Source: Candidatus Omnitrophota bacterium
GTDB lineage: Bacteria; Omnitrophota; Omnitrophia; Omnitrophales; Aquincolibacteriaceae
Direction of reading: 5' to 3'
NCBI GenBank assembly: GCA_030698625.1
Contig: JAUYMS010000028.1
Span: forward strand, 3,854-67,853
DNA length: 64,000 nt
The notes under the pieces were generated by a model that worked only from the letters and a program-made list of their open reading frames with translations, did not search any database and had not been told where the DNA came from. Shown here in pieces: positions 13,560 to 60,116 of the stretch (positions are counted from its first letter, which is position 1; every line of letters starts with the position of its first letter). Position numbers and translations under genes: made by a program.

Positions 13560-14168
13560 TCTTCTCTTTTCAATTGCGGCGATCTTCCGAGCCGCCTCCC
13601 AAAGATCCTTCACGATGTAGTCGGGTTTTGCGCCTTTTTTTTCCATGAGCCTCAACCAATCCAACTTAACTTGACCGACTAATAGGGTCGTGCAGCCGGC
13701 TCGCTTTCCTGCCTGGATATCATTGATGCCGTCCCCAACCATATAGGAAGTCCTTAGGTCGATATTAAGATCGCGTGCCGCTTGTTTCAAAAGCCCCGGT
13801 TTAGGTTTGCGGCAGGGGCAATTCCTACGCAGGCGCCCATAACCTTTGGTAGGATGACAGACGCAGTAATAGATTCCGTCGAGGGCGGCCCCCTCTTTCT
13901 TGAGCAGTCGCACCATCTTTCGGGTGATATCGTTCAAGGCTTTTTCGGTGAAATGCCGCATGGCCAATCCGGGTTGGTTTGAGGCGATGACGGCCTTTAG
14001 ACCGATACAGTTTAGTCGCCGTACGGCTTTAGCTGCGTGCGGCAGGAGCCGGAATTGTTTTGCGGTGAAGGGTGTCTCTATGATTCCCATCTCTTCATGG
14101 AAGATAATATCGTTGATGACGCCGTCACGATCGAGAAAAACCGCACTCGACTTCTGGTTAACTGACAT
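13527..14168 (-). CDS. gmhB: D-glycero-D-manno-heptose 1,7-bisphosphate phosphatase (HAD, histidinol-phosphatase-like)
   Basis: 'VFLDRDGVIN' HAD motif I. Zn-binding 'CVCHP..CPCRKPKPG' typical of GmhB. Start chosen at the internal Met (MSVNQKS). Confidence 0.75.
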   Translation of the reverse strand: MSVNQKSSAVFLDRDGVINDIIFHEEMGIIETPFTAKQFRLLPHAAKAVRRLNCIGLKAVIASNQPGLAMRHFTEKALNDITRKMVRLLKKEGAALDGIYYCVCHPTKGYGRLRRNCPCRKPKPGLLKQAARDLNIDLRTSYMVGDGINDIQAGKRAGCTTLLVGQVKLDWLRLMEKKGAKPDYIVKDLWEAARKIAAIEKRRLANRVRRPTR

Positions 14169-14880
14169 GCGTTCTCCTGCTCGTGCGCAGAAGCTTCTCC
14201 CGCACATTGGCAAGTCCGTCGGGTGTGCCGACGTCGAGAGGAGGTTCGGCGATCGGGTAGGCCTGCAGGCCGCCCTCTGCGGCAATTTTCGCGAGTACAT
14301 CGACTTCGAGCGAAAACTTCACGTCGGATTCGAAATAGTCAAACAGGGCCTTCGAGAACAGCTTGATCCCGCTATCGACATAATCCTTGCCGGCCGGGTT
14401 TATATAATCGTAGGCCTCAATGATGCGGCGATCCTCGGACAATTTTACATTGCTGCGAAATAAGGGCGGCGAGTTCCTCCAGCATGCGAGCAAGCCGATA
14501 AAACGAGACGCATCAAACCGGTCATCAAAATCGCGGTAATCAAGTGTGAGATAATTATCACCGCTGACGACAAAGAATCGGTCATGTAAAAGCCCTCGTG
14601 CCTGCTTGATTGCCCCGCCGGTGCCGAGCAGCTCCTTTTCAAAGGAATATTGAATCTTATAGCCCCACGCTGATCCGTCAGCAAAATACTCTTGGATTTT
14701 GTCGGCTCGGTGGCCGACGCATAGCACGAAATTCTTTATGCCGTAACTGCCTAAATGATCAAGCAGCCACTCGAGAAAAGGCTTATCGCCGACGGGCACC
14801 ATAGGTTTCGGCAGGTCCCGGGTAATGTCGCCGAGTCGGGTACCCAATCCGCCGGCTAAGATTAAGGCTTGCTCAGTCAC
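14158..14880 (-). CDS. hddC: D-glycero-alpha-D-manno-heptose 1-phosphate guanylyltransferase-like sugar nucleotidyltransferase
   Basis: 'LILAGGLGTRLGDITRDLPKPMVPV' nucleotidyltransferase signature. Sits in an operon with gmhA, gmhB and hddA. Confidence 0.7.
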   Translation of the reverse strand: MTEQALILAGGLGTRLGDITRDLPKPMVPVGDKPFLEWLLDHLGSYGIKNFVLCVGHRADKIQEYFADGSAWGYKIQYSFEKELLGTGGAIKQARGLLHDRFFVVSGDNYLTLDYRDFDDRFDASRFIGLLACWRNSPPLFRSNVKLSEDRRIIEAYDYINPAGKDYVDSGIKLFSKALFDYFESDVKFSLEVDVLAKIAAEGGLQAYPIAEPPLDVGTPDGLANVREKLLRTSRRTHVS

Positions 14881-14883
14881 GTG

Positions 14884-17252: not shown

Positions 17253-17401
17253 ATGGCTGGGTATTATATCGGCGCGATTCGGAGGTTGTAAAGCGGTTAT
17301 TTTTGTAATCCATGTAGGCACAATATCTTACGATGATGCTGTAAGTTATTTAAAACAATGCGCTTAGCTCGATATAAAGCTGAATGGCCCCTTAATAAGG
17401 G

Positions 17402-43368: not shown

Positions 43369-43459
43369 GGTGATAACTGTAACGGCAGATGATACTTGAT
43401 TCGATCGGGAACCTCAAGAACATGTGGTCAAGGTGGGATTTGACTCCTATAATAAAAAG

Positions 43460-44683: not shown

Positions 44684-44765
44684 GCCAGTTATTAGTCGTA
44701 AGGCTTTATGATTAATAGGCTTATGACGCCGGCATGAAGCGCCTAAATGGTCGAATAAGGGGTCC

Positions 44766-44794
44766 TTTACAGCCCTCAAGATTTCCTGTAAAAT
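44766..44794 (+). promoter_or_regulatory. Sigma70-like promoter TTTACA-N17-TAAAAT
   Basis: Lies in the 212-bp gap before the epimerase gene. Confidence 0.4.
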
Positions 44795-44831
44795 ACGTCG
44801 CTTCAAGCATTTATCGCAGATTTCGCGGGTC

Positions 44832-44845
44832 GGTGAGTGCTCACC
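44832..44845. promoter_or_regulatory. Perfect inverted repeat GGTGAG-TG-CTCACC between promoter and start codon
   Basis: Seen directly in the sequence. No T-run follows, so it looks like an operator or leader hairpin rather than a terminator. Confidence 0.35.
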
Positions 44846-44895
44846 CCGAAGCGTTGTGAATTCCCGCCAAAATACCGTAAGGAGCTCAAAGGATT

Positions 44896-45909
44896 TTGAG
44901 AATGCAGAATTGTCTTGTTACAGGTGGTGCAGGTTTTATTGGAAGTCATTTGGTAGAGCGCTTGTTGCGTGACGGTCACCGAGTGACTGTGCTGGATAAC
45001 CTTAGTACAGGTCGCCTGAGCAATCTGTCGTTTGCGCAAGATAATACCTCTCTGACTTTTCATCAACAGGATGTCGCGGAGGCGTCTGCCATTGAGGGGT
45101 TCTTCAGCGGAGTTGATTGGGTGTTTCACTTGGCGGCGTTAGCAGATATTGTCCCGTCGATAGAGCGGCCGCTTGATTACCATCGCGCGAATGTCGACGG
45201 TACGGTTGCTGTGCTGGAAGCTTCGCGAAAGGCGGGAGTTAAAAGATTCGTCTACACGGCGTCATCTTCCTGTTACGGCATCCCCGATAAATACCCTACT
45301 CCCGAGTCCGCGCCTATTCGTCCCCAATACCCCTATGCCCTAACCAAATACATCGGCGAGACGACAGCGATGCACTGGACGCAGGTATACGGGTTGCCCG
45401 TTGTGTCTCTGCGGCTCTTTAACGTTTATGGACCGCGGTCGCGGACATCAGGAACATATGGCGCCGTATTTGGAGTGTTTTTGGCCCAGAAGCTTGCCGG
45501 TAAGCCATTTACGGTTGTTGGTGACGGAAAACAAACGAGGGACTTCACTTTTGTCTCGGATGTGGTTGATGCCTTCGTCGCAGCGGCGGCTTCAGATAAG
45601 TCCGGTGAGATCTTGAACATTGGTTCGGGCAATACGTACAGCGTTAATCTTCTGGTGAGTCTCCTGGGCGGAGAGGTTGTTTATATTCCCAAGCGCCCAG
45701 GGGAGCCCGACTGCACGTTTGCGGACACGGCAAGGATCCGCGACGTGCTCTCATGGACTCCGCGAGTCAGTTTTGAAGAGGGCGTCCAAGTGATGCTCGA
45801 CAATATCGAATGTTGGCGGGAGGCCCCTGTCTGGAACGAGTCGTCCATCGCTGAAGCGACACGGGGTTGGTTCCAATATCTTAGTCCCGAAGGAGCTTCG
45901 AAGCAATGA
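44896..45909 (+). CDS. NAD-dependent sugar epimerase/dehydratase (UDP-glucuronate decarboxylase / 4-epimerase-like)
   Basis: 'CLVTGGAGFIGSHLVERL' motif and YxxxK 'YALTK'. Confidence 0.8.
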   Translation: MRMQNCLVTGGAGFIGSHLVERLLRDGHRVTVLDNLSTGRLSNLSFAQDNTSLTFHQQDVAEASAIEGFFSGVDWVFHLAALADIVPSIERPLDYHRANVDGTVAVLEASRKAGVKRFVYTASSSCYGIPDKYPTPESAPIRPQYPYALTKYIGETTAMHWTQVYGLPVVSLRLFNVYGPRSRTSGTYGAVFGVFLAQKLAGKPFTVVGDGKQTRDFTFVSDVVDAFVAAAASDKSGEILNIGSGNTYSVNLLVSLLGGEVVYIPKRPGEPDCTFADTARIRDVLSWTPRVSFEEGVQVMLDNIECWREAPVWNESSIAEATRGWFQYLSPEGASKQ

Positions 45910-47447
45910 CCACCAAACTGGAAATTATTAAAGAAAAGATTTTCGAGATCGACCGCATCGATGGCGAACTGGATGCAGCGCGTAGCCAAGGGAAAAAGGT
46001 CGTGCAATGCCACGGGGTTTTTGACCTTCTTCACATCGGTCATATTCGGCACTTAAACAGGGCCAAGAAGATGGGGGATGTGCTCGTTGTTTCGATTACG
46101 CCGGACCGCTTTGTGAACAAGGGCCCCCACCGCCCCGCGTTTCCGGACCAATTGCGCGCGGAGGCTATTGCCGCGCTCGACTGTGTCGACTATGTCGTGA
46201 TCAACAACTGGCCCAAGGCAATTGAAGCAATCAAGCTCATCAAGCCGGATATGTACGTCAAAGGACGTGACTACCGTGATGCGGCCAAGGATCACACCGG
46301 CGGAATTTTGGAAGAAGAGTCGGCCGTGCAATCGATCGGCGGCAAGCTCGTCTTCACCGATGAGATTGAGTTCAGTTCCACAAGCCTGATCAATCAGCAC
46401 CTCGGCGTTTTTCCGAAAGAAGTCACGCAGTATCTGACCGATTTTGCCAAGCGCTATTCCTCAGACGATGTGATCGGATTTATCAAGCAAGAGCAGCCCC
46501 TTAAGGTCCTGGTAATCGGTGAGGCCATTGTCGACGAGTATCAGTATTGTGAAGCCATCGGGAAGTCATCGAAAGAGCCCATGCTTGCGGTTAAGCGTCT
46601 TTCGACGGAAAAATTTGCGGGGGGTATCTTGGCGGTTGCCAATCACGTCGCGAATTTCTGCGATGAAGTCGGCCTTGTCACAATGCTGGGCACGAGGCAT
46701 TCTCAGGAAGAGTTTATCCGAGAGAAGATGAACGAGAAAATCCACAATGTGTTCCTCTATCGAGAGGATTCGCCCACGATTGTGAAGCGCCGCTTTGTGG
46801 AGAGCTACTTCTTTACGAAGATGATGGAACTCTATGAGATTAACGATGGCTTGCTCACAGTTGAAGACAATCGCGCACTTTGCAAAGCCCTTGAGGCCGA
46901 GGTTCCTAGGTATGACGTTGTGATCGTTGTTGATTTCGGGCATGGCCTGATGAGTTCGGACGCGGTTAAAGTTATTTGCGATAAAGCCAAGTTTTTGGCC
47001 GTTAACGCGCAGTCGAATGCCGGCAATATCGGATACCAGACGATTTTAAAATACCCTCGAGCGGATTATATTTGCATGGCCGAGAATGAGATTCGAATGG
47101 AAGCGCGTGACCGGCGAGGTGACCTGAGACAGATGATTATCGACTTAGCGAAGAAAGTTAAATGTGAGCGTATTACGGTGACCCGCGGTAAAAACGGGTG
47201 TTTGTGCTATTGCCGTGAGGAAGGTTTTTCGGAAGTCCCGGCATTTGCCGGCCAAGTACTTGACCGCATGGGTGCGGGCGATTCATTTCTTTCGCTGACC
47301 TCGGGGTTGGTTGCCCGAAAAGTGCCCACCGAAGTTGTGGGCTTTGTTGGGAATGTAACTGGGGCACAAGCGGTGGCTACGGTGGGCCATCGGCGTTCCG
47401 TGGAACGTGCGCCGCTTTTTAAGCACATCGAATCATTGCTGAAGTAA
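45906..47447 (+). CDS. Bifunctional cytidylyltransferase-like nucleotidyltransferase (N-terminal) and PfkB sugar kinase (C-terminal); HldE-like with reversed domain order
   Basis: N-terminal 'CHGVFDLLHIGHIRHL' H/TxGH motif. C-terminal PfkB 'GAGDSF' signature. Confidence 0.7.
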   Translation: MTTKLEIIKEKIFEIDRIDGELDAARSQGKKVVQCHGVFDLLHIGHIRHLNRAKKMGDVLVVSITPDRFVNKGPHRPAFPDQLRAEAIAALDCVDYVVINNWPKAIEAIKLIKPDMYVKGRDYRDAAKDHTGGILEEESAVQSIGGKLVFTDEIEFSSTSLINQHLGVFPKEVTQYLTDFAKRYSSDDVIGFIKQEQPLKVLVIGEAIVDEYQYCEAIGKSSKEPMLAVKRLSTEKFAGGILAVANHVANFCDEVGLVTMLGTRHSQEEFIREKMNEKIHNVFLYREDSPTIVKRRFVESYFFTKMMELYEINDGLLTVEDNRALCKALEAEVPRYDVVIVVDFGHGLMSSDAVKVICDKAKFLAVNAQSNAGNIGYQTILKYPRADYICMAENEIRMEARDRRGDLRQMIIDLAKKVKCERITVTRGKNGCLCYCREEGFSEVPAFAGQVLDRMGAGDSFLSLTSGLVARKVPTEVVGFVGNVTGAQAVATVGHRRSVERAPLFKHIESLLK

Positions 47448-47459
47448 AGGGAGAACCCA

Positions 47460-48071
47460 ATGGATTTTCAGTATCTGCCGATCACGAATTACCTTCGGCG
47501 TCTTGGGGAAATTGCCTTATGGACGGAGGTGAACGCCGGTGCGGGAGAGAACACGAATGCTATTTCGCTGGATGACGGCTCGAAGCGGGCGGTGCAGATG
47601 ATTCTGGACGCCAAGTTTGGGCAATCGAAGATCATGCTGGTCGGTAACGGTGGAAGTGCCGCGATCGTCAGTCACATGCAAAACGATCTCTGCGATTCCG
47701 TCAAAGCCCGGGCGATGGTCTTTAACGAGCCGCCTTTCTTGACTGCCGTATCGAATGACCACGGATACGCGACGTTTTTTGAAGACGCTGTGAAACTCTG
47801 GGCAGAGCCCGGAGATGTACTGATTGCAATCAGCAGCTCAGGGAAGTCCGAGAATATTCTGCGCGCGGTGCGTGCGGCTCGGGCCAAAGATTCAGAAGTG
47901 ATCACCCTGTCGGGATTCGATGAGAAGAACCCGCTAAGAAGTTTGGGTGACCTCAACTTTTATGTGCCTGCAAATGAATACGGTATTGTCGAAACGGCGC
48001 ACGGAATCCTATGCCACTATATGAGCGACGCTGCTCTGGCAGCTTTAAACGTGCCGAGGCCGGTCGCTTAA
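47460..48071 (+). CDS. gmhA: SIS-domain phosphoheptose isomerase (copy 2)
   Basis: 'IMLVGNGGSAAIVSH' SIS motif. Confidence 0.7.
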   Translation: MDFQYLPITNYLRRLGEIALWTEVNAGAGENTNAISLDDGSKRAVQMILDAKFGQSKIMLVGNGGSAAIVSHMQNDLCDSVKARAMVFNEPPFLTAVSNDHGYATFFEDAVKLWAEPGDVLIAISSSGKSENILRAVRAARAKDSEVITLSGFDEKNPLRSLGDLNFYVPANEYGIVETAHGILCHYMSDAALAALNVPRPVA

Positions 48072-48073
48072 GC

Positions 48074-49102
48074 ATGAGAAAGTTCCAAGAAATACTGGTC
48101 ACGGGTGGGGCTGGATACGTCGGCGCGCGGTTAGTGCCTAAGCTCCTCAAACGCGGCTATAAGGTGCGCGTCCTTGACCTGTATCTTTTTGGCGAAGGAT
48201 TCTGGCCGGAGTGGGATGGATCCGCAAAACTGACCGAAATCAAAGGGGATTTGCGGGATACGGAAACGGTCCGCCGGGCGGTTCAAAGATGTGATGCGGT
48301 CATCCATTTAGCGTGCATTTCAAATGACCCAAGCTTCGAGTTAAACCCGGATCTCGGGCGCTCCATCAATTACGATGCTTTTCGACCGCTCGTGACCATG
48401 AGCCGGGATGCGGGTGTGAAACGGTTTATCTACGCGTCTTCCTCGAGCGTATACGGAATCAGTGACCGCCCAAACGTGACCGAAGATCACCCGCTTAAGC
48501 CGCTCACAGATTACAGCAAGTATAAAGCGCTCTGCGAAGAGATTCTTGCCGAGTACGAGAGCCCCGACTTTACAACGGTGGTTCTGAGGCCGGCGACGGT
48601 TTGCGGGTATTCGCCCAGGCAACGCCTCGACTTAACGGTGAATATTTTGACGAATCACGCTGTGCATAACGGCAAGATTAAAGTTTTTGGCGGAGAGCAG
48701 CTGCGCCCCAATATCCACATTGAGGACCTTACGGACCTGTATGTTCAATTGTTGGAACTACCTGCTGAAAAGGTGGCGGGTAAGACGTACAACGCGGGTT
48801 ACGAAAATCAAAAGGTGAAGGACATTGCGATGGCTGTCAGCAGCGTGGTTCGTGCAATGATACCGGAGCGCTCAGACCTCGCAATAGAGACAACACCGAC
48901 TGACGACAATCGCTCGTATCACATTTCTTCTGCAAAAATAAAGGGCGAGTTGGGATTTGCCCCCAAGAGGACCATCGAAGATGCGGTCAAGGATTTAGTG
49001 GCTGCTTTCCAGGCAGGCAAAATTCCGAATGCGATGACGGACAGCCGCTATTTTAATATCAAGACCATGCAGGAAAGCGTACTGGCGCAGCCGCAGTCAT
49101 GA
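48074..49102 (+). CDS. NAD-dependent sugar epimerase/dehydratase
   Basis: 'ILVTGGAGYVGARLV' motif. Internal ATG start chosen. Confidence 0.75.
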   Translation: MRKFQEILVTGGAGYVGARLVPKLLKRGYKVRVLDLYLFGEGFWPEWDGSAKLTEIKGDLRDTETVRRAVQRCDAVIHLACISNDPSFELNPDLGRSINYDAFRPLVTMSRDAGVKRFIYASSSSVYGISDRPNVTEDHPLKPLTDYSKYKALCEEILAEYESPDFTTVVLRPATVCGYSPRQRLDLTVNILTNHAVHNGKIKVFGGEQLRPNIHIEDLTDLYVQLLELPAEKVAGKTYNAGYENQKVKDIAMAVSSVVRAMIPERSDLAIETTPTDDNRSYHISSAKIKGELGFAPKRTIEDAVKDLVAAFQAGKIPNAMTDSRYFNIKTMQESVLAQPQS

Positions 49103-50067
49103 AAACGCATCCCTCTATCGAATTATATCGCGAAATGTTGCGCATTCGGCGCGTCGAAGAACGTATTGCCGAGCTCTATCCGGAGCAGGAAATCCGCTGC
49201 CCTGTCCATTTGTGTATCGGCCAAGAGGGTGTGGCTGTCGGCGTATCTGCAAACCTGAAGCCCCAAGATTATGTCCTCAGCGGCCATCGTTCGCACGGGC
49301 ATTACTTAGCACGCGGCGGAAACTTGAAGGCCATGATGGCAGAGCTGTGGGGCAAGGTTACGGGTTGCTGTCAGGGTAAGGGCGGCTCGATGCACTTGAT
49401 TGATTTGTCGGTCGGATTTCTGGCATCGACGCCGATTGTGGCCAGTACGATTCCGATCGCCGTCGGCGCCGCCTTGGGTTCGGTGATGAAGAACGAGGAT
49501 CGTGTCACGGTCGTGTACTTTGGCGAAGCCGCGACTGAGGAGGGCACGTTCCACGAAGCGGCTAATTATGCGGTCTTGAAGAAGTTGCCCGTGGTTTTTG
49601 TTTGCGAAAATAACCTTTATTCTGTCTATTCGCCGTTGGAAGTACGCCAACCGCCCGAACGCTCCCTCGTCGAGTTAGCGCGGGGCCACGGAATGGAAAG
49701 TCACTGGGAAGATGGCAACGATGTCCTTGCGGTGAAACGCTTGAGTGAACACGCCATCGATCATGCCCGCGCGGGTAAAGGTCCCAGCCTTCTGGAGTTT
49801 TCGACCTACCGTTGGTATGAGCACTGCGGTCCGAATCTTGATAACCATATCGGTTATCGCACGGAAGAAGAATTCCTCACATGGAAGAAGACTTGCCCCC
49901 TTTTGAAGTTAAGAGAGTCTTTACTTGCTGAAGGGATTTGTGCTGAGCCGGATCTGTCGTTGATCGAAGAAGATTTGAAGGCTGAAATTGATGACGCAGT
50001 TCGGTTTGCAAAAGAAAGCCCGTTTGGTGAAGAAGATTTGGCCTATCAACATATCTATGCAACCTGA
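49099..50067 (+). CDS. Thiamine-diphosphate-dependent dehydrogenase E1 alpha subunit
   Basis: TPP motif region 'GQEGVAVG...YRSHGH...GKGGSMH'. Confidence 0.8.
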   Translation: MKTHPSIELYREMLRIRRVEERIAELYPEQEIRCPVHLCIGQEGVAVGVSANLKPQDYVLSGHRSHGHYLARGGNLKAMMAELWGKVTGCCQGKGGSMHLIDLSVGFLASTPIVASTIPIAVGAALGSVMKNEDRVTVVYFGEAATEEGTFHEAANYAVLKKLPVVFVCENNLYSVYSPLEVRQPPERSLVELARGHGMESHWEDGNDVLAVKRLSEHAIDHARAGKGPSLLEFSTYRWYEHCGPNLDNHIGYRTEEEFLTWKKTCPLLKLRESLLAEGICAEPDLSLIEEDLKAEIDDAVRFAKESPFGEEDLAYQHIYAT

Positions 50068-50075
50068 CGAGCGTC

Positions 50076-51293
50076 ATGCCTGCAGACAAGTTTGATATTG
50101 CGATCATCGGTGGCGGGATCGTCGGGCTGGCGACAGCGCTAAGTCTTGCTAAAAGCCGGCCCGATTTACGGCTGTGCGTGTTTGAGAAGGAAGCATTGAT
50201 CGGGGAGCATCAGACATCGCATAATAGCGGCGTGATTCATTCCGGCATTTATTACGCGCCGGGCTCTTTGAAAGCGAGTCTTTGTGTGAAAGGCGTCGGC
50301 GCGATGATTTCTTTTGCTAAGGAAAACGGCGTGCCCTTTGAGCAGTGCGGGAAAGTTATTGTGGCAACCCGAGAAGAACAGAGACCGAGACTCAGAGCGC
50401 TATTCGAGCGGGGAATAGCAAACGGCGTTCCCGGTCTGCGTATACTTAACCGAACGGAGCTCCTTGAGCTCGAGCCGCATGCTGAAGGACTCGAAGCCAT
50501 TCACTCGCCGACTACCGGCATCATTGATTTTCGAAGGGCGGCCGAAGTCATGGCCGAAAAGTTTAAGGCCGGCGGCGGTAGCGTAGAGACCATGGCGAAA
50601 ATGGTTTCAGCTGAACATACCGGCTCCGAGCTTGTGTTGAAAATAGGCCGGATGGAAATCCGGACAAAGTATTTGATTAATTGCGGCGGTCTTTATTCGG
50701 ACACGATCGCCTTGATGCTCGGGGTTGAGCCGGGCGTGAGGATTATTCCGTTTCGCGGCGAGTACTATCTTATCCGGAATGAAAAGCGGCATTTAGTGAA
50801 GAATCTTATTTACCCGGTTCCAGACCCGGACTTACCTTTTTTGGGTGTTCATCTGACGCGTACAGTGGACGGGAAATTGGAAGCCGGACCGAACGCGATC
50901 CTGGCAACAGCGCGTGAGGGGTATCGGCGATCCGATTGGAAGACCGGAGAGTTTCTTGCAACATTGAGTAGCCCGCATTTTTGGAACATGGCGCGCCGTT
51001 ATTGGAAGACCGGTATTTTGGAGTGTTACCGTGCGGTGAGTAAGCGATCATTTGCGCGAGAGCTGCAAGGTCTGATAAAGGGCATTAGCGAAGATGATCT
51101 GGTGGATGGGCCAAGCGGCGTGCGGGCCCAATGCGTGGCAGAGGATGGCACGCTGGTTCACGATTTCAAGATTGTTGAAGGGCCGCGGTCAATTCACGTT
51201 GTAAACGTACCGTCACCGGCGGCAACGGCATCACTGGCGATCGGGGAGTATATCGCGGGGCTCGGAATTAAATCCTATGACGAGAGAACTTAA
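50076..51293 (+). CDS. FAD-dependent oxidoreductase (L-2-hydroxyglutarate oxidase / DAO family)
   Basis: 'FDIAIIGGGIVGLATA' dinucleotide fold and a 'SGVIHSGIYY' motif typical of this 2-hydroxyacid oxidase (LhgO-type) family. Confidence 0.75.
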   Translation: MPADKFDIAIIGGGIVGLATALSLAKSRPDLRLCVFEKEALIGEHQTSHNSGVIHSGIYYAPGSLKASLCVKGVGAMISFAKENGVPFEQCGKVIVATREEQRPRLRALFERGIANGVPGLRILNRTELLELEPHAEGLEAIHSPTTGIIDFRRAAEVMAEKFKAGGGSVETMAKMVSAEHTGSELVLKIGRMEIRTKYLINCGGLYSDTIALMLGVEPGVRIIPFRGEYYLIRNEKRHLVKNLIYPVPDPDLPFLGVHLTRTVDGKLEAGPNAILATAREGYRRSDWKTGEFLATLSSPHFWNMARRYWKTGILECYRAVSKRSFARELQGLIKGISEDDLVDGPSGVRAQCVAEDGTLVHDFKIVEGPRSIHVVNVPSPAATASLAIGEYIAGLGIKSYDERT

Positions 51294-52338
51294 ATATTTT
51301 CAAGCAATTCGCGAAGCGTTGGACCTGAGTCTGGAGCAGGATCCCTCTGTGTACTTGATGGGGCTGGGTGTGCCGGACCCTAAGGGGATCTTTGGCACGA
51401 CGCTGGGTCTTCAGGAGAAGTATGGCCCGGAGCGCGTGATGGATATGCCGACGGCAGAGAATGGCATGACGGGTGTTGCCCTGGGGTCAGCGATTGCGGG
51501 GATGCGGCCGGTCATGGTTCATCAGCGACTCGACTTCGCACTGCTGGCAGTGGAACAGATCGTGAATCAAGCTGCGAAATGGCATTACATGTTTGCCGGT
51601 AAGAGCTCGGTGCCGATGGTGATTCGATTGGTGATCGGACGAGGTTGGGGCCAAGGGCCGCAACATTCGCAGAGTCTCCAATCGTGGTTTGCTCATGTCC
51701 CGGGTCTCAAGGTTGTTATGCCGGCAACACCTTACGATGCGAAGGGATTAATGCTTTCCAGTATACGGGATGATAACCCGGTCATATTCTTGGAGCATCG
51801 CTGGCTTCACAATATGTTTGGTGCAGTGCCGGAAGGTGATTATGAAGTGCCGATCGGGAGAGCTCATGTTATTCGCGAGGGAAGGGATGTTACGATTGCC
51901 GCAGTGTCGCATATGGTCGTAGAAGCTCTGCAGGCGTCGAAAATGCTGGCAGAAGTAGGTATTGAAGCCGAGGTTGTTGACGTTCGCACCCTGCGTCCCC
52001 TGGATACGGAAACCATCGCAGCCTCGGTGCGTAAGACGCGGCGTATCCTGGTGGCCGATACCGACTGGAAAACAGGCGGCTTCAGCGCTGAAATTGTCTC
52101 ATGGGTGTGTGAAAACCAGTTTGATATCTTGAAGACAGCGCCGAGACGCGTGGCGTTGTCGGATTGCCCCGTGCCGACATCGCAGGTTCTTGCGAATCCT
52201 TGTTACCCACGGCCGGTAGATATTGCGCGCCAGGTATGCGAGATGGTGGGGCAGTCGACAGCGGATATTCAAGTACCCGTTGAATCAAGCGGAATACCGT
52301 TGGACATTCCGGATGCAAGTTTTGCGGGGCCTTTCTAA
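51277..52338 (+). CDS. Thiamine-diphosphate-dependent dehydrogenase E1 beta subunit (transketolase-like Pyr and C-terminal domains)
   Basis: E1-beta-like organisation with no lipoyl or E2 domain nearby. Confidence 0.8.
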   Translation: MTRELKYFQAIREALDLSLEQDPSVYLMGLGVPDPKGIFGTTLGLQEKYGPERVMDMPTAENGMTGVALGSAIAGMRPVMVHQRLDFALLAVEQIVNQAAKWHYMFAGKSSVPMVIRLVIGRGWGQGPQHSQSLQSWFAHVPGLKVVMPATPYDAKGLMLSSIRDDNPVIFLEHRWLHNMFGAVPEGDYEVPIGRAHVIREGRDVTIAAVSHMVVEALQASKMLAEVGIEAEVVDVRTLRPLDTETIAASVRKTRRILVADTDWKTGGFSAEIVSWVCENQFDILKTAPRRVALSDCPVPTSQVLANPCYPRPVDIARQVCEMVGQSTADIQVPVESSGIPLDIPDASFAGPF

Positions 52339-52339
52339 T

Positions 52340-53494
52340 ATGACAACAAGAGCAGCCGATAAAGAGACAGTCTCCGAAACACGACAGGTGCCGTACGTGA
52401 ATATTACGGGACAGCATGCGGGTCTCAAAAAGCAATTGCTCCGGGAATTCGAACGCGTTATCGATAGCGGCCAATTCGTGCTAGGTGAGGATGTGGGGAT
52501 ATTTGAAAAGCGTTTCGCCGAATTGTGCGGTGTTTCGTATGCTGTTGCCGTCAATTCCGGCACAGACGCACTCCTCTTAGCGTTGCGCGTCCTGAAGGTG
52601 GGTGAGGGCGACGAAGTTATTACGGCGCCAAACTCGTTTGTGTCGACGGCGAGTTGCATACGTCTTACCGGTGCGATGCCGGTCTTTGCCGACGTCGGGG
52701 AAGACTACAACATCGATCCCTCCAAGATTGAGGCTGCAATAACTGAGCGCACGAAGGCGATTTTGCCGGTGCATCTTACGGGACGCACTGCCGACATGGA
52801 TGCCATACTCGCGATAGCCAAAAGACATGAGATTCTCGTTGTTGAGGACGCCGCGCAAGCCGTCCTATCGGAATATCGCGGACGTCGCGCGGGTTCCTTC
52901 GGTGTTCTTGGGTGTTTCAGTCTTCATCCGCTAAAAACGCTCAATGCCTGCGGCGACGGCGGAGTTATTACAACAAACGACGAGAGGCTCTACAAACGGC
53001 TTCAGGTTTTACGTAACTTGGGTCTGGAGCATCGCGACGATTGCGTGGTCTGGACGGGGAACTCTCGCTTGGATACGATACAGGCTGCCGCGTTGCTCGT
53101 GAAGATGGACTATCTCGAGGCGTGGACTGCGGGCCGACGGAAGAACGCTGAATTTTATCGGCGTGAACTAGCCGGTGTTGCCGGGGTGCGGTGCCCGGAG
53201 CCGAAGAATCACGAAAGACCGGTGTACCACACGTTCGTGATTCGTGCCGAGCGGCGCGACAACCTCAAAAAGTATTTGGCAGATCAGGGAATCGGCTCGG
53301 CGGTGCATTACCCTGTTCCTATCCATATGCAAACGGTCGCCAAAGATCTTTGTGTGGCTGAGGGCAGTTTGCCTGAGGCCGAGACGCAATCGAAGGAAAT
53401 ATTGAGCCTTCCTGTTTATCCTGAGCTCGGCAAAGAAGACCTCGCCTATGTTGTTTTTTACATAAAAAAATTCTATCGGAGCGAAAATATATGA
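52340..53494 (+). CDS. DegT/DnrJ/EryC1 PLP sugar aminotransferase (tandem copy 1)
   Basis: DegT family. Start at ATG 52340. Confidence 0.8.
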
Positions 53495-54615
53495 GCACAA
53501 AGACAATGCAAGTGAAGTTCTCATATTTGGACCGCCAGTTTGAGAACATCGAGGACTACTTAGACGATATCCGTCAGGTGGTGAAGTCCGGTGATTTTAC
53601 GCTGGGGGTCGCGGTTCGTGAATTCGAGTCACGTTTTGCAAGGCTCTCCGGAGTCGCCCATGCCGTCGGAGTGGGAACGGGAACTGATGCGCTTGCGATG
53701 CCGCTCAAGGTGTTAGGCGTGGGGCCGGGCGACGAGGTGATTACGACGCCGATGACCTTCATCGCGACGGTCGGTGCTATTGCGAAGACGGGCGCCACCC
53801 CGGTTTTTGTTGATAGCGAAGACGGCTTTGTGATTGATCCCGACAAAATTGAGGCTGCTATCACGCCGCGGACAAAGGCGATTCTTCCGGTGCACTATAC
53901 CGGGAATGTGGCTGATATGCCGCGTATTGCGGCAATCGCCCAAAAACACAACCTCCTGATCGTCGAAGATGCCTGCCAATCGATCGCAGGGGCCATCGAC
54001 GGCAAACCGGTGGGCTCCTGGGGAGAGGCCGCAGGATTTAGCCTCCACCCATTGAAGAACTTGAATGTTTGGGGTGACGGGGGAATGATCATTACGCGCT
54101 CCGAAAAGTTGGCCGAACACTTAAGACTTTTTCGTAATCACGGGCTTGTAAATCGTGACGAGGTCTCCCTGTTCGGTTGGAACTGCCGCCTAGACAGTCT
54201 ACAAGCGGCCATCGGCAACCGTCTGATTGACCAGGTCGATTTTATTACCGACGGCCGAATTGCCAATGCCGCTCGTTATGATGACGGGTTGAAGGATTTG
54301 GCTGAATCAATATCCATTCCCGTAAGGCGGCCCGGAGTCAAGCATGTCTACCATCTCTACGTGATACGCGTTACGGAGCGCGATCGGTTGCTTAAGCATC
54401 TAATCGAAAACGGGGTTGAAGCAAAGGTGCACTACCCGATCCCGGTTCATTTGCAGGAGGGGGCCCGATCGCTGGGGTACAAGAAGGGCGACTTCCCTAA
54501 GTGCGAAGAGGATTGTGAGGATATCATTACTTTGCCCGCTCATCAGCATCTGGGCAATGATGAGATTGACTACACGATTGAGCAGGTAAGAAATTTTTAC
54601 AGGGGTAAGTCATGA
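53491..54615 (+). CDS. DegT/DnrJ/EryC1 PLP sugar aminotransferase (tandem copy 2)
   Basis: DegT family and paralogous to copy 1. Confidence 0.8.
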
Positions 54616-55868
54616 CGCTTAGTCTCAGAGAAGCAAGAATACGGAAGAAACAGCCTTATCGGCCGTTACTCGTGAATCTTGCCTTGCTGGTTTTTGTATG
54701 CGTTTTGGCGGTAGGCGCCGCCGAGGGCGTCCTACGCATAACGAAGTCCGTCAATCGCCTTCACAATCGAGCCACGAACATCTTTGATCCGGACATTGGC
54801 TACTACCATGGCCCGAAACAAAGTACGATATTCCGGTTCGAAGGACAGCGAATTCCGTATGGAACCAATAATTTAGGGTTCCGTGATAGGGACAGGGAAG
54901 TCCCCAAACCCGCGGACACTTACCGCGTTTTGTTTCTTGGCGACTCCTTCCTCGAGTCGCCGTGGTTGCCGAGTGAAGCCATTTTCCCGGCGGTTCTTGA
55001 GGAACGCTTCCGGGAGCGTGAGGTCGCTTCGGGCAAAAAGGTTGAATTTCTTAATTTTGGGGTCCTCGGTTATGGAACGGGTGTTCAGTACAATCAGCTT
55101 CTGAAAATAGGCGTTCAAACGGAGCCTGATTTTGTAGCGGTTGCATTCTTCATCAATGACATTTTAGACAACTATACGACTCCTCTTTTGCCGGGCGGCC
55201 GCCCGGATCCCGAATTTCTAGATCCGATCGATTATCACTTGGCTCATTATGCTAAGGATAGTACGGGGGGATGGCGGTTTATTCCGGCAGAGCCGTATCC
55301 GCATCGCGGCGCCGTGCGTACTTTTTTGAATAAGGAATTTCACCTCTATCAGTTTTTGGGAGACAGCTTTCCGGCTCTCAAAAAAGTGCTCCGCCTATTT
55401 GAGCGTAAGGCGCCGGAAGAGCATGTGACCGAAACCTCTGAGCGGAGGCTTGAACCGAACCAAATGTTTAATTTTCTTCAGTCTCCCCCGGTTGAGGTGG
55501 TGATCGGTTGGGAAGCTACCGAGTATATCCTTGGTGAAATGAAATCCTATCTGAGTCTGAAGGGAATCCCGATGATGTTAACCTTCCTGCCACCGGACTA
55601 TCTCCTATCGCGAGAGGCATGGGAAGCGGAAATGAAGGCCAGGGGTCTGAATCCTGACGAAGGGGCTATCGATCTTCCCGAGCAAAAGGTTAAGGCAATT
55701 TGCGAGAAGCTCGACATTGAGTTTGTGAGCCCGACAGCGAAGTTTCGCGCCTCGGGCAAGCAACTTCATTTTAAATCCGACCCTCACTTTAATGCGAGCG
55801 GGCACGCGCTTATGGCAGATGTGATGGAGACTTATTTCCAGAACCGGCTCGCGCCGGGAAGGAAATGA
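54612..55868 (+). CDS. Membrane-anchored SGNH/GDSL hydrolase (paralog 3 of 3)
   Basis: N-terminal TM helix. '[11 protein letters not shown]' block I and 'DPHFNASGH' block V. Confidence 0.7.
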
Positions 55869-56869
55869 ACAACATGGGAAAAGAAACGGTAGCAGTCATA
55901 GGCAGTAATTGTTTCACGGGAAGCCATGTCGTGGATCGTTTGCTGCAAGATAAGGATTTGAGGGGAATCGGTCTGAGCCGGTCGCCCGAAAAAAAGGACT
56001 TCTTCCTGCCATACAAGAGCCGGGCAGAGGCCGACTTCCAGTTCTTCCAAGTGGACTTAAATCGGCAGAGTGAGGAATTGATTCGTATTCTCGATGAGTT
56101 TGAACCGAGCACGGTGATCAATGTAGCGGCTTTAAGTGAAGTGGCACTTAGTAATTTTCAGCCTATGGACTACTTCGATACGAACACGATGGGGGTTGTG
56201 AAGTTGTGCAGCCAACTGCGCGAGCGCTCCTATTTGAAGAGGTATGTCCATATATCGTCTGCGGAAGTCTACGGCAGCTGTCCCGAACCGCTTTTGGAAT
56301 CAGCTCCGTTGAATCCTTCGACGCCGTACGCGGTTTCAAAGGCGGCCGGTGATATGTACCTGCAGACGCTCTACAAGAATTTTGATTTCCCTATGATGCT
56401 AATCCGGTCTACGAATGTCTACGGCCGGCACCAACAGCTTTTCAAGATCATCCCTCGAACGATTATTTATTTGAAGCAGGGGAAGACGCTCGAGCTTCAC
56501 GGCGGCGGAATGGCTGTGAAGACGTGGCTGCATATTCGCGATGTCTCCGAAGGGATTTACCAGGCGATGAAGAAGGGCAAGCCGGGGGAGATCTACCACT
56601 TTGCGGATGCGCACTCTTATACAATTCGGGATCTCGTGGAGCGCATCTGCCGGCTTATGGGCAAGGATTTCTCAGCGTGCACGAAAGACGTGGGCGAGCG
56701 TCTGGGGCAGGATGCGCGCTATGAGCTTGATTACGGAAAGGCGAAGCGGGAACTGGGGTGGCAACCGCGAGTTTCGTTCGAAGAGGGGTTGCGCGAGACC
56801 ATAGAGTGGCTGGAGAATGATCCGAATGAAATCGAAGGAGAGTCCTTGGTGTACGTTCACCAGGCTTAA
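55865..56869 (+). CDS. Extended-SDR sugar nucleotide dehydratase/epimerase with an atypical dinucleotide motif
   Basis: 'VAVIGSNCFTGSHVVDRL' replaces the canonical GGAGFIGS, while YxxxK is still present. Confidence 0.7.
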   Translation: MNNMGKETVAVIGSNCFTGSHVVDRLLQDKDLRGIGLSRSPEKKDFFLPYKSRAEADFQFFQVDLNRQSEELIRILDEFEPSTVINVAALSEVALSNFQPMDYFDTNTMGVVKLCSQLRERSYLKRYVHISSAEVYGSCPEPLLESAPLNPSTPYAVSKAAGDMYLQTLYKNFDFPMMLIRSTNVYGRHQQLFKIIPRTIIYLKQGKTLELHGGGMAVKTWLHIRDVSEGIYQAMKKGKPGEIYHFADAHSYTIRDLVERICRLMGKDFSACTKDVGERLGQDARYELDYGKAKRELGWQPRVSFEEGLRETIEWLENDPNEIEGESLVYVHQA

Positions 56870-57636: not shown

Positions 57637-57655
57637 AGGTGTCTCTGTGGTGAAA

Positions 57656-58576
57656 ATGAAGACAAAACGGCAGCTGGGTATTTGCGACAGCCGCCTTGCA
57701 AGTTCAATACTTGGCGATTTTCTGATCTTGTTGGAGGAGCTCCAGATTAATTCGGCAATTCGTCAGATAGAGGCGCCGACTGATATTGCCATTCTCGGGG
57801 ATAATCCCGGATCGGATTTTCTCGCGATGGCGAAGGGTTTCAATGGAGTAGGGGAAATCTTTGTGCTTGCGTCCTATCGGGAACTCGAGGCCTTGATGGC
57901 CGAATCGGTCTATGAATACACTCCCTGGCCGGGGCTCGGCCCTGAGGGGGTATCGGGTTATCAATATGGCTATACGCTCTTCATCCAGGATTATTTCGGA
58001 AAGACGGGCGCAATTCCCTCGCTTGCACTCAAACCGGAATATCGCACTTGGGCGTGTGATTGGCTTAGGGAACAGGCCGGTTCCGTGAACACTATTGCCG
58101 TTCACCTGAAGAATAAGATCCGGCCTTCGGGGAAACCCGACTGGTACAACGCCCGGTTGGACGAATGGGAGACATTTTTTAGAACGATTCGCGGCCGTTA
58201 TGATGTGAAGTTCATCCTGGTTGGTAATGAAAGGGTGCCCGATGGGATTCGTAATCTCGAGAATATAATCGTGACGCACGAATGCGGCGGTACGATATTG
58301 AAAGACCTGGCTTTAATTGAGAACACACAGGCCTTTATGGGGGTTGCCAGCGGGCCCTGCCAGATGGCCATGTTTGGCCGACGGCCCTATGTTATTTTCA
58401 AGAACCCCGAACGGCATGTCGACCGGATGTTTGAAGAGCTCGGGAACCGGAATCAGTACGTTTTTGCTGCGCCCACGCAGAGATTTTTGCGGCGCTTCGA
58501 AACGAGTGCGACGTTGCTCGAAGAATTCGAAGCTGTTTATGCCGGCATTGAGACCACCGTTACACAAGGAAATTAA
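57656..58576 (+). CDS. Candidate GT9-like (heptosyltransferase family) glycosyltransferase
   Basis: C-terminal 'FMGVASGPCQMAMFGRRPYVIF' resembles the GT9 'DSGPMHLAAALG.P.VALFG' segment. Start chosen at ATG 57656. Confidence 0.45.
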   Translation: MKTKRQLGICDSRLASSILGDFLILLEELQINSAIRQIEAPTDIAILGDNPGSDFLAMAKGFNGVGEIFVLASYRELEALMAESVYEYTPWPGLGPEGVSGYQYGYTLFIQDYFGKTGAIPSLALKPEYRTWACDWLREQAGSVNTIAVHLKNKIRPSGKPDWYNARLDEWETFFRTIRGRYDVKFILVGNERVPDGIRNLENIIVTHECGGTILKDLALIENTQAFMGVASGPCQMAMFGRRPYVIFKNPERHVDRMFEELGNRNQYVFAAPTQRFLRRFETSATLLEEFEAVYAGIETTVTQGN

Positions 58577-58577: not shown

Positions 58578-59426
58578 ATGACAAACAGTCAAGAAAAACG
58601 CTTTACCGATAAGGTCGTCGCAGTTACGGGTAGTGCTCGAGGCATCGGTAAGAACATTGCGGCTGCATTTGCCGGAGAAGGCGCCTTTGTTTTTATTTGC
58701 GATATAAACACGGAAATGGGGAAGGCGACCGAAGACGAGTTTCGCAATCGCGGTCTGGCCTGTGAGTACCTGAAAGTGGATTTAGCCAAGAGCGGTGCTG
58801 CGGCAAAAATGGTGCAAGAGATCGTAAAGCGGAAAGGCTGTTTGGATGTGCTCGTCAACAATGCGCGCTCACGGCATCGTGTTTCGATGCTGGAAGAGAC
58901 CGAAGAATCCTGGGAGCAAGGGATGGCCGTTACCCTCAAAGGGGCATTTTTCGCCTCCCAGGAAGCGATCCGGGTCATGTCCGAAAGGTCCGGCGGCAGC
59001 ATTGTCAACATCAGCTCGGTGATGGCGGAAATGACATGCCATGAATCGCCCGTTTATCACATTGCGAAGGCCGGCGTGTCGCATATGACCCGTTACTTTG
59101 CAACTCATGGATCACCGCTGGGCGTGCGCGTCAATGCGGTTGTGCCGGGTTTCATCGTCCAGGACGAAAATCGCGAACGTTACGCCGGAACAGATAACAA
59201 AAGTTACCGGGAGGTCGGCGAATTCACGCATCCGGTGCGCACCGTAGGCAAATCGGATGATGTCGCTTACGCCGTGCTTTTCCTTGCCTCGACCGAGTCG
59301 TGTTTTATCACGGGGCAATGCCTCGTCGTCGACGGCGGCGCGACATTGCAGGAACAAAACAGCTTGATACATCGGTTTTCAAAAACGGGGCATGAGGGAC
59401 TTGAGAAGGCGGGCAAACGCATATGA
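58578..59426 (+). CDS. Classical SDR oxidoreductase (FabG-like)
   Basis: 'VVAVTGSARGIGKNIA' motif and YxxxK. Confidence 0.75.
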   Translation: MTNSQEKRFTDKVVAVTGSARGIGKNIAAAFAGEGAFVFICDINTEMGKATEDEFRNRGLACEYLKVDLAKSGAAAKMVQEIVKRKGCLDVLVNNARSRHRVSMLEETEESWEQGMAVTLKGAFFASQEAIRVMSERSGGSIVNISSVMAEMTCHESPVYHIAKAGVSHMTRYFATHGSPLGVRVNAVVPGFIVQDENRERYAGTDNKSYREVGEFTHPVRTVGKSDDVAYAVLFLASTESCFITGQCLVVDGGATLQEQNSLIHRFSKTGHEGLEKAGKRI

Positions 59427-60106
59427 CGGAAACGGGCAGCAAAATCGGACGTGAAATTAATTTGATGGACCGGTATCCGAGAAGTAAGCGGCCGATCGAC
59501 GAGCGGGCAATGCTAATCACCGAAGAGCATCGAAAGATAGCTCGCCGCTTTGAAAAGGATTTTTTCGACGGCGACCGCCTCTATGGATATGGAGGATATC
59601 GTTACCACCCGCGTTTTTGGAAGGAAACCGTGATGCGCTTCCGCGACTTTTACGGTTTGAAGCCCGATGCGGCGGTACTGGACGTGGGATGCGGTAAAGG
59701 CTTTATGCTCCATGATTTTAAGGAGTTGATGCCCGATATGACGGTTGCGGGAATTGATGTTTCGGAATACGCCATCGAGAATGCGATGGAGACGATGAAG
59801 CCGTATGTGCGTGTGGGGAATGCTAAAGACTTGCCTTACGAAGAAAACTCCTTTGATTTGGTGATTTCGATTAATACGGTGCACAACCTGCCGCCGGAGG
59901 AATGTAAGCGATCGCTCAGGGAGCTCGCGAGAGTATCACGTGCCCATGCATTTATCATTGTCGATGCTTGGAGAAATGACGCCGAGAGAGACAGCATGAT
60001 GAAGTGGAATTTGACGGCACTTACCTACAGCCATGCCGATGACTGGAAGAAACTCTTCCGAGAGGCCGGATACGGCGGCGATTATTATTGGTTTATCGCC
60101 GAATGA
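59423..60106 (+). CDS. Class I SAM-dependent methyltransferase
   Basis: SAM motif I 'VLDVGCGKGFM'. Confidence 0.75.
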   Translation: MTETGSKIGREINLMDRYPRSKRPIDERAMLITEEHRKIARRFEKDFFDGDRLYGYGGYRYHPRFWKETVMRFRDFYGLKPDAAVLDVGCGKGFMLHDFKELMPDMTVAGIDVSEYAIENAMETMKPYVRVGNAKDLPYEENSFDLVISINTVHNLPPEECKRSLRELARVSRAHAFIIVDAWRNDAERDSMMKWNLTALTYSHADDWKKLFREAGYGGDYYWFIAE

Positions 60107-60116
60107 GCCGAGGAAA

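Follow-up and report, generated by a model that had tools for sequence, protein, structure and literature searches.

The window analysed here is a stretch of 64,000 nucleotides from a Candidatus Omnitrophota bacterium (GenBank assembly GCA_030698625.1, contig JAUYMS010000028.1, positions 3,854 to 67,853), and our subject is a gene within it that encodes an HxGH nucleotidyltransferase joined to a PfkB kinase (hereafter the fusion). The open reading frame (ORF) is present as given in a preliminary description of the window, on the plus strand with an ATG start and a length of 513 amino acids (Table 1). Pfam assigned the N-terminus to CTP_transf_like (PF01467; residues 36-160, 57.3 bits against a gathering score of 21) and the C-terminus to PfkB (PF00294; residues 200-499, 57.2 bits against 25.8). 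BLASTP comparison with E. coli HldE (from NC_000913) aligned residues 24-124 of the fusion with HldE 334-436 at 43% identity and residues 201-494 with HldE 13-299 at 20% identity. Because each half maps onto the opposite half of HldE, both domains are, judged by alignment, homologous to those of HldE with their order reversed. The inverted order claimed in the preliminary description was thus recovered both by the domain hidden Markov models that it had proposed as a check, each scoring above its gathering threshold, and by BLASTP; the fusion does not follow the kinase-then-nucleotidyltransferase order of HldE. NCBI lists a protein of 100% identity as 'PfkB family carbohydrate kinase [Candidatus Omnitrophota bacterium]', on a 132-kb contig of a metagenome-assembled genome (MAG).

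The same arrangement recurs widely. The best 120 of 5,766 homologues, at 61-72% identity, all carried the two Pfam domains in the order seen in the fusion. When 1.84 billion cluster representatives were searched exhaustively with HMMER, 1,253 of them matched at E<=1e-30, and the best 150 of these matches were mainly full-length and collinear, with identity down to 33%. We also considered that the fusion was a frameshift or misassembly artefact, which the thousands of collinear homologues ruled out. Loci were taken from a genome-contig scan with a single sequence (11 loci) and from an alignment-based metagenome scan, in which 571 out of 600 candidate stretches were confirmed as members of the fusion family. 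The named genomes with fusion loci, MAGs without exception, belonged to Calditrichaeota, Omnitrophota, Gemmatimonadales, Binataceae, Lentisphaerae, Bryobacteraceae, Verrucomicrobia, Planctomycetaceae and Alcaligenaceae. Homologues are annotated by JGI as 'rfaE bifunctional protein' and are otherwise labelled 'PfkB family carbohydrate kinase'. The reversed nucleotidyltransferase-PfkB family is large, conserved and distributed across many phyla of uncultured bacteria, and it appears to be uncharacterised.

Two relatives of the fusion carry a third domain. P0134 (699 amino acids; locus L019, 8001-10100) has the order HAD-nucleotidyltransferase-PfkB, and its HAD part scored 143 bits against the beta-type GmhB model and 66 bits against the alpha-type model. 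P0207 (764 amino acids; locus L017, 3749-6043) has the order nucleotidyltransferase-PfkB-SIS, and the top match of its SIS part was GmhA. Through these natural fusions, the nucleotidyltransferase-kinase pair is linked to an isomerase and to a phosphatase acting on a bisphosphate, the four activities on which the ADP-heptose pathway is built. Around P0207, locus L017 also encodes a NUDIX hydrolase, an aldo-keto reductase, an orthologue of SDR2 (a short-chain dehydrogenase/reductase (SDR) described below) and a DegT protein, together with an AP_endonuc_2 TIM-barrel protein, a transketolase, an inositol-monophosphatase-like protein and an S6PP-like HAD.

By sequence profile, heptose enzymes are the top matches, by wide margins, for the nucleotidyltransferase domain, the kinase domain and the SIS isomerase encoded downstream of the fusion. 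The nucleotidyltransferase domain scored 108 bits against rfaE_dom_II, with TagD next at 46 bits. The kinase domain scored 107 bits against rfaE_dom_I, followed by iolC (34 bits), ribokinase (30 bits) and fructokinase (24 bits), and the SIS protein scored 79-87 bits against GmhA models, with DiaA as the next SIS family at 56 bits. When the kinase domain was searched against PDB sequences, the HldA entry 4e84 matched at E 2e-10 and the next match at 1e-3. We compared an AlphaFold model of the fusion (pLDDT 90.9, pTM 0.84) with the PDB using Foldseek. The seven top matches were all heptose-7-phosphate kinase HldA (E 1e-22, target TM 0.87, root-mean-square deviation 2.7 Å), ribokinases and Pfk-2 started at E 1e-16, and the top 50 matches were all ribokinase-fold kinases. 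The kinase domain is therefore nearer to heptose kinases (HldA and HldE domain I) than to the remaining PfkB subfamilies, ribokinase and fructokinase included; a closer likeness to ribokinase or fructokinase, which the preliminary description had named as the result that would speak against its proposal, was not seen.

Motif conservation was examined in sets of 129 and 25 family members. In the nucleotidyltransferase domain, the family keeps H36-G-x-F-D-x-x-H43-x-G-H46, K72-G..R76-P77 and [FY]156-S-S-[ST]; in the kinase domain, it keeps G239-G240, E395 (of NxxE) and G456-A-G-D459. The HldE-type motifs HxGH (H43-I-G-H46), GG, NxxE and GAGD are invariant or nearly so across the family, and the PTITKLR motif of HldE is kept in the kinase domain as PT..K.R.

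The SIS protein matched SIS_2 (53.6 bits, Pfam cut-off 27), and its PDB matches were GmhA structures (E 3e-18). In E. coli GmhA numbering, it retains H61, D94 (ND-GY), the S119/S121/S124 phosphate loop (SSSGKS) and H180. A second GmhA-like SIS gene lies on the minus strand of the window, in agreement with the earlier claim of two such isomerases. The exchanges E65D and Q172E are common to both SIS proteins of the window, to every cassette orthologue and to the SIS part of P0207, and they may mark a distinct isomerase subclass.

The one GmhB-like HAD in the window sits in an operon with a GHMP kinase. It scored 146.4 bits against the beta-type GmhB model NF006506 (cut-off 178) and 71 bits against the alpha-type model, and because no other GmhB-like HAD is encoded in the window, it is the candidate for the phosphatase step of the fusion's pathway. 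At locus L001, an HAD within the cassette itself scored 145 bits against the beta-type model and 91 bits against the alpha-type model. The nucleotidyltransferase, kinase, SIS protein and associated HADs thus all match ADP-beta-heptose enzymes best, which bears out the HldE-like character proposed for the fusion.

To place the fusion among its neighbours, we searched the window proteins by tblastn against 96 related loci, 36 of which have at least 3 kb upstream and at least 5 kb downstream (full-flank loci). SDR2 was the commonest neighbour, with an orthologue (at least 50% identity) in 27 of the 36. The association had been 14 out of 14 in a small initial sample, and SDR2 orthologues that are 54-65% identical stand beside fusions that are merely 37-45% identical. 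SDR1 had an orthologue (at least 55% identity) in 16 out of 36 full-flank loci and was the immediate upstream gene in 24 out of 68 loci; 31 out of 36 had SDR1 or SDR2, and 21 out of 36 had a SIS-like gene. E1 alpha, E1 beta and the methyltransferase each recurred in 12 out of 36, SDR3 in 10, the paired DegT aminotransferases in nine and a GmhB-like HAD in nine. Directly downstream of the fusion, we found the SIS gene in 34 and SDR2 in 17 out of 77 loci. The cassette is a mosaic with a clear core, and the linkage holds across phyla.

Table 1. Coordinates of the fusion, its domains, the genes around it and the genes of the minus-strand operon in the window
Feature	Position	Strand	Details
SDR1, extended SDR, GalE-like nucleoside diphosphate (NDP)-sugar epimerase/reductase	44896..45909	+	Pfam Epimerase 219 bits
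Nucleotidyltransferase-PfkB fusion	45906..47447	+	HxGH nucleotidyltransferase and PfkB kinase, 513 aa
Fusion, HxGH nucleotidyltransferase domain	~residues 1-170		Pfam 36-160 = nt 46011-46385
Fusion, helical linker	~residues 171-196		
Fusion, PfkB kinase domain	residues 197-513		Pfam 200-499 = nt 46503-47402
GmhA-like SIS isomerase, 203 aa	47460..48071	+	SIS_2; ATG start; AGGGAG ribosome-binding site 7 nt upstream
SDR2, extended SDR	48074..49102	+	Closest PDB entries 6VO6/6VO8
Thiamine diphosphate (ThDP)-dependent E1 alpha (pyruvate dehydrogenase (PDH)/acetoin-dehydrogenase E1-like)	49099..50067	+	E1_dh 236 bits; overlaps SDR2 stop
FAD-dependent L-2-hydroxyglutarate oxidase	50076..51293	+	NF008726; between E1 alpha and E1 beta
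ThDP-dependent E1 beta	51277..52338	+	Transket_pyr 115.6 bits; Transketolase_C 109.7 bits
DegT/DnrJ/EryC1 aminotransferase 1	52223..53494	+	PF01041 377.7 bits; domain from residue 69
DegT/DnrJ/EryC1 aminotransferase 2	53491..54615	+	PF01041 361.9 bits
SDR3, NDP-sugar 4,6-dehydratase-like extended SDR	55865..56869	+	GDP_Man_Dehyd 170 bits
S-adenosylmethionine (SAM)-dependent methyltransferase	59423..60106	+	Methyltransf_25/11; orthologues 40-70% identity
GmhB-like HAD phosphatase	13527..14300	-	NF006506; true start probably near 14160; HAD residues 51-242
NTP_transferase, HddC-like	14158-14880	-	132 bits, cut-off 300
FSA/TalC-type transaldolase	14884-15534	-	230 bits, cut-off 246
Second GmhA-like SIS gene	15553-16194	-	
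GHMP kinase, HddA-like	16227-17321	-	222 bits, cut-off 600

Start and stop codons of neighbouring genes in the cassette overlap or nearly abut, which indicates one operon. The SDR1 stop overlaps the fusion start codon (ATGA), with AAGGAG upstream, and SDR2 likely starts at the ATG at 48074, 2 nt past the SIS stop, a longer ORF from 48011 overlapping the SIS gene. A scan of 43300-52400 for sigma-70 promoters and terminators gave counts at the level of shuffled sequence (6 against 6.6; 11 against 10.5).

This setting bears on the explanation that the fusion is a housekeeping HldE for the inner core of lipopolysaccharide (LPS), with swapped domains and no special pathway. HldE is its top annotation match, the JGI label for its homologues says the same, and the phyla that carry it are mostly diderm, which counts in favour of such a role. 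However, the fusion appears to be co-transcribed with sugar-remodelling enzymes inside a 64-kb surface-glycan island, in a linkage that persists from phylum to phylum, and we found no GT9 heptosyltransferase among the genes scanned. A member of the family also occurs in an Alcaligenaceae MAG; Alcaligenaceae presumably have canonical heptose genes as a rule, which counts against a housekeeping role. Taking these points together, we consider a domain-swapped housekeeping HldE unlikely.

The enzymes encoded around the fusion are mostly those of nucleotide-sugar remodelling families. The top PDB match of SDR1 was the UDP-glucose 4-epimerase 7ys8 (E 1.8e-59). SDR3 matched the dTDP-glucose 4,6-dehydratase 6bi4 (E 3.2e-49) and scored 209 bits against TIGR01181, below the cut-off of 365. 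The two ThDP-dependent subunits stayed short of their equivalogs, E1 alpha with 300.7 bits against the PDH E1 alpha model (cut-off 393.85) and E1 beta with 320.1 bits against NF006667 (cut-off 321), and we found neither an E2 nor an E3 gene among their annotated neighbours. We also considered that the E1 pair makes the ketose substrate of the SIS protein through a DXS-like condensation and rejected this by reasoning: the product from pyruvate would be a 1-deoxy-ketose, which is not isomerisable to an aldose. Aminotransferase 1 probably starts downstream of position 52223, because its domain begins well inside the translated sequence; its top NCBIfam matches were 4-keto-sugar 4-aminotransferases, with PseC at 245 bits, below cut-off. 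Orthologues of aminotransferase 2 at 60-71% identity were found at loci L006, L009-11, L038, L054, L064 and L099. The cassette is flanked by the genes of two GDSL/SGNH-like paralogues (43424-44683 and 54612-55868). Each protein is about 418 amino acids long with an N-terminal hydrophobic segment, and they may be glycan O-acyl esterases or transferases.

The top PDB match of SDR2 was 6vo6, over its full length (E 4.6e-43, 151 bits, against 108 bits for the second match). We take 6VO6 to be Campylobacter jejuni Cj1427, an NDP-heptose C4-dehydrogenase, an assignment that fits the deposited molecule name. Cj1427 converts GDP-heptose into the 4-keto-heptose and reduces alpha-ketoglutarate to L-2-hydroxyglutarate (PMC10680097). 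The oxidase encoded two genes downstream of SDR2 passed the L-2-hydroxyglutarate oxidase equivalog NF008726 over its full length (510.8 bits, cut-off 299). Its orthologues adjoin SDR2 at loci L002/L003 and L032 and lie nearby at L050. We infer that this oxidase recycles the by-product of SDR2 to alpha-ketoglutarate; we know of no report linking an L-2-hydroxyglutarate oxidase to a Cj1427-type dehydrogenase, although no dedicated search was made.

We favour, with moderate confidence, the reading that the fusion belongs to a beta-type (HldE-like) nucleotide-heptose module that feeds 4-keto-heptose remodelling for the cell surface. Every substrate and product named in what follows is a prediction, drawn from the domains observed and their order, the motifs retained, the size of the family, the linkage of the genes and the ranking of similarities. 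The SIS protein would isomerise sedoheptulose-7-phosphate to heptose-7-phosphate, and the C-terminal PfkB domain would add a phosphate at the anomeric hydroxyl, yielding heptose-1,7-bisphosphate. A GmhB-type HAD, here the one in the minus-strand operon and elsewhere one in the cassette or fused, would then strip the 7-phosphate, and the N-terminal HxGH domain would join the resulting heptose-1-phosphate to an NTP (ATP, CTP or UTP) to give NDP-heptose. SDR2 would oxidise C4 of the NDP-heptose with alpha-ketoglutarate, releasing L-2-hydroxyglutarate, from which the oxidase of the operon would regenerate alpha-ketoglutarate. The E1 alpha/beta pair could add a two-carbon branch at C4 of the NDP-4-keto-heptose, as AviB1/B2 do for other sugars, and the two DegT aminotransferases, the 4,6-dehydratase-like SDR, the other SDRs and methyltransferases could provide amination, deoxygenation and methylation.

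We expect a remodelled product rather than plain ADP-heptose because the context, which the preliminary description had passed over, includes a Cj1427-like dehydrogenase, an L-2-hydroxyglutarate oxidase, an E1 pair and aminotransferases. The D/E variant of the isomerase and the altered kinase and nucleotidyltransferase motifs leave room for a heptose other than the manno form or a nucleotide other than ADP. A bolder version, which we put forward only tentatively, is that the reversed family is a widespread source dedicated to an NDP-beta-heptose distinct from the precursor of LPS (with CDP or UDP, with another stereochemistry set by the D/E isomerase, or both), which is oxidised at C4 with recycling of alpha-ketoglutarate, branched and aminated to give undescribed branched amino-heptose (C9) surface sugars in uncultured bacteria of many phyla. 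Such sugars would represent the first physiological role for beta-heptose nucleotides other than ADP-heptose.

Several observations weigh against a beta-type nucleotide-heptose module. None of the equivalog models of its enzymes was reached: the fusion scored 155.4 bits against HldE NF008454 (cut-off 521), the nucleotidyltransferase domain 108.1 bits against TIGR02199 (rfaE_dom_II; cut-off 181.5), the kinase domain 107 bits against TIGR02198 (rfaE_dom_I; cut-off 345), and the SIS protein 79 and 86.7 bits against the GmhA models TIGR00441 and NF010546 (cut-offs 209.45 and 276). The kinase domain, at 20% identity to HldE domain I, has the family-invariant D-[FY]-G-H-G in place of DYAKG and N-x-Q-x-N-x-x-N in place of DPKG. 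According to commentaries on Tang et al. (Science 2024), the C-terminal motif of HENases is (F/L)XXGXSTT, in which promiscuous enzymes have Arg as the fifth residue. The fusion lacks this hallmark, reading E-I-E-F-S-S-T-S at residues 153-160. The family consensus at this site is x-x-x-[TV]-[FY]-S-S-[ST] (T/V at 155, F/Y at 156, S-S at 157-158 and S/T at 159), so that an aromatic residue stands where the promiscuous HENases have Arg. Of the catalytic/Zn residues H61, E65, Q172 and H180, the SIS protein and all nine related SIS sequences have D for E65 and E for Q172, and Q172 is reported as fully conserved among the GmhAs compared in PMC7705670; both exchanges are chemically plausible for catalysis, so the protein may still be active. 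SDR2 is absent from a quarter of the full-flank loci, the Cj1427 label of its closest structure is provisional, and Cj1427 acts on GDP-alpha-heptose, not on a beta-linked NDP-heptose. Finally, we found a phosphatase gene neither in the fusion operon nor in 27 out of 36 full-flank loci. The preliminary description had proposed ADP-heptose or another NDP-heptose; a heptose-type route remains the best reading, and ADP specifically is not supported, given equivalog scores so far below cut-off and the divergent HENase motif.

The same observations would also fit a different substrate, with the chemistry unchanged: a heptose stereoisomer other than D-glycero-D-manno-heptose or a higher sugar such as an octose, perhaps CDP- or UDP-activated. 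The isomerase exchanges occur in every cassette orthologue and not in characterised GmhAs, the sugar-side motifs of the kinase differ from those of HldE, and all equivalog scores fall short. There are also precedents. HygP is a variant sedoheptulose-7-phosphate isomerase that shifts the stereochemistry at C2/C3 (altro-heptose) and whose product HldE still accepts, the LmbR/LmbN pathway applies the same logic to an octose, and, according to commentaries, the HENases of Tang et al. make CDP- and UDP-heptose. However, the D/E pair also occurs in the window's other GmhA-like gene and may therefore reflect lineage drift, the genes recurring with the fusion included neither a transaldolase nor any other enzyme that forms octulose, and the closest structure of SDR2 is presumably that of a heptose-specific dehydrogenase. 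We regard a sugar other than the usual heptose as possible but doubtful.

The missing phosphatase also raises the question of a salvage-type activator, in which the kinase would act on the anomeric position of a free sugar and the nucleotidyltransferase would activate the product directly, with no need for a phosphatase. A reaction of this kind is known, since HldE turns free mannose into ADP-beta-mannose (PMC10948575). By contrast, natural HAD-nucleotidyltransferase-PfkB fusions and GmhB-type HADs within the cassette do exist, and the phosphate-binding loop SxSGxS of the SIS partner is intact, which implies that its substrate is a phosphosugar. We judge salvage to be the least probable of the explanations considered here, and we retain the nucleotide-heptose module as our preferred reading.

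A second nucleotide-sugar operon lies on the minus strand of the same island (13527-17321), in the order GHMP kinase, SIS, transaldolase, NTP_transferase and HAD, with all equivalog scores below cut-off. The preliminary description had placed two nucleotide-heptose routes in one island, the other being a route to GDP-alpha-heptose. A second, distinct higher-sugar route is indeed present; its identity as a GDP-alpha-heptose route is less clear, because the set includes a transaldolase. Synthesis of GDP-alpha-heptose by this set is plausible. By analogy, it may instead make an NDP-octose, because the set, with its transaldolase, matches the lincomycin GDP-octose pathway in all five activities. 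In lincomycin biosynthesis, LmbR is the transaldolase that makes octulose-8-phosphate, and the remaining steps (LmbN/P/K/O) are those of an isomerase, a kinase, a phosphatase and a nucleotidyltransferase.

The GT9-like gene that the preliminary description had placed at 57656..58576 could not be recovered as such: it had no Pfam match at E<=1 and no NCBIfam match, and its best PDB matches were antibody light chains at E>=0.16. Between two SDR genes, ORFs at 57533-58576 (plus strand) and 57704-58279 (minus strand) overlap on both strands, neither with Pfam, NCBIfam or PDB similarity, and the former may be an orphan gene or non-coding. Elsewhere in the island, a nonulosonic-acid set (pseudaminic/legionaminic-like; 21249-25914) comprises a PseB-like Polysacc_synt_2 dehydratase, a DegT protein, a GT28-C and GNAT fusion (PseG/PseH-like) and a NeuB synthase, and is preceded by a small HTH_17 gene (20963-21265). 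It is followed by other unusual genes for glycan tailoring, which encode an FkbH-like protein (26363-28270), a fusion of a MaoC dehydratase and an SDR (28502-29683), a class III aminotransferase (31375-32799) and a HisH/HisF-like pair of glutamine amidotransferase and cyclase (32807-34236). Two large ORFs after these (35283-36425 and 36422-38347) had no Pfam match. Two radical SAM enzymes are encoded at 5101-6405 and 60033-61937; the latter has a B12-binding domain and is a candidate sugar C-methylase. Two YfhO-family and two PMT/PMT_2 (GT-C) membrane proteins (796-5092, 19252-20841 and 40879-43368) and a Wzx-like flippase (38350-39882) suggest lipid-linked glycan transfer on the outer face of the membrane.

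The cassette can be set beside several known systems. With HldE of E. coli and HldA/HldC of Burkholderia, the fusion has in common PfkB and HxGH domains, a nucleotidyltransferase domain 43% identical to that of HldE, an HldA-like kinase fold (target TM 0.87) and the GAGD, GG, NxxE and HxGH motifs. It differs from HldE in its reversed domain order, its 20% identical kinase domain, its scores below cut-off and its replacement of DYAKG, DPKG and GxSTT, and it lies in a sugar-remodelling operon, not among LPS core genes. The SIS protein likewise has the SIS fold of GmhA with H61, D94, S119/S121/S124 and H180, although it departs from GmhA at E65D and Q172E and in its scores. With the HBEs and HENases of Tang et al. 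(Science 2024), as far as the commentaries on that work describe them, the cassette and its relatives share the activities of an isomerase, a kinase, a phosphatase and a nucleotidyltransferase and the habit of multi-domain fusion. Those commentaries list three HENase types (nucleotidyltransferase alone, kinase/nucleotidyltransferase and isomerase/kinase/nucleotidyltransferase) and do not mention the orders nucleotidyltransferase-kinase, HAD-nucleotidyltransferase-kinase or nucleotidyltransferase-kinase-SIS.

Further resemblances concern the remodelling steps. For Cj1427, which works with alpha-ketoglutarate in a ping-pong mechanism, the likeness is that 6VO6, presumably Cj1427 itself, is the best solved relative of SDR2, and that an oxidase for L-2-hydroxyglutarate is encoded alongside here; the difference is that Cj1427 uses GDP-alpha-heptose, whereas SDR2 presumably receives a beta-linked NDP-heptose from the HxGH transferase. 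To our knowledge, 4-keto-heptose chemistry is known only for the GDP-alpha-heptoses of Campylobacter capsules. The E1 pair, without E2 or E3 and beside makers of 4-keto sugars, resembles by description AviB1/AviB2 of avilamycin and Pau11/Pau12 of paulomycin. Such PDH-E1-like pairs represent one of two described routes to a two-carbon, pyruvate-derived C4 branch on a 4-keto sugar (PMC4425429). They belong to actinomycete antibiotic clusters and act on hexoses, whereas here the pair belongs to uncultured bacteria, within a surface-glycan island, and the substrate is presumably a heptose. The septacidin L-heptosamine pathway, which runs from ADP-heptose through 4'-oxidation and epimerisation to 4'-transamination, offers another parallel, with a beta-type NDP-heptose, oxidation at C4 and then DegT-type transamination; the AP_endonuc_2 TIM-barrel gene of locus L017 belongs to the superfamily of the C5-epimerase SepJ. 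In septacidin, however, oxidation is carried out by SepI, a GMC flavoenzyme, after transfer of the sugar to adenine, whereas here an SDR would act, presumably on the nucleotide sugar.

Beta-linked NDP-heptoses serve as precursors of LPS and are potent agonists of innate immunity. According to a commentary, the discoverers of CDP- and UDP-heptose consider the physiological roles of these compounds unknown and suggest that genes beside heptose-biosynthesis genes may hint at them. The cassette is such a clue, and it could show whether 4-keto-heptose chemistry exists on the beta branch. If the recycling step is real, glycan synthesis has taken over L-2-hydroxyglutarate oxidase, an enzyme of the metabolic repair type, as a co-substrate recycler; if the product is plain ADP-heptose, the fusion is a domain-order variant of modest interest. 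Every enzyme type in the cassette is known and permutations of domain order are common, so the system is not categorically new. Relative to the systems compared here, what appears to be new is a large conserved family with a domain order absent from the three HENase types described in the commentaries, in a context that points to 4-keto-heptose chemistry on the beta branch together with an unreported recycling partner.

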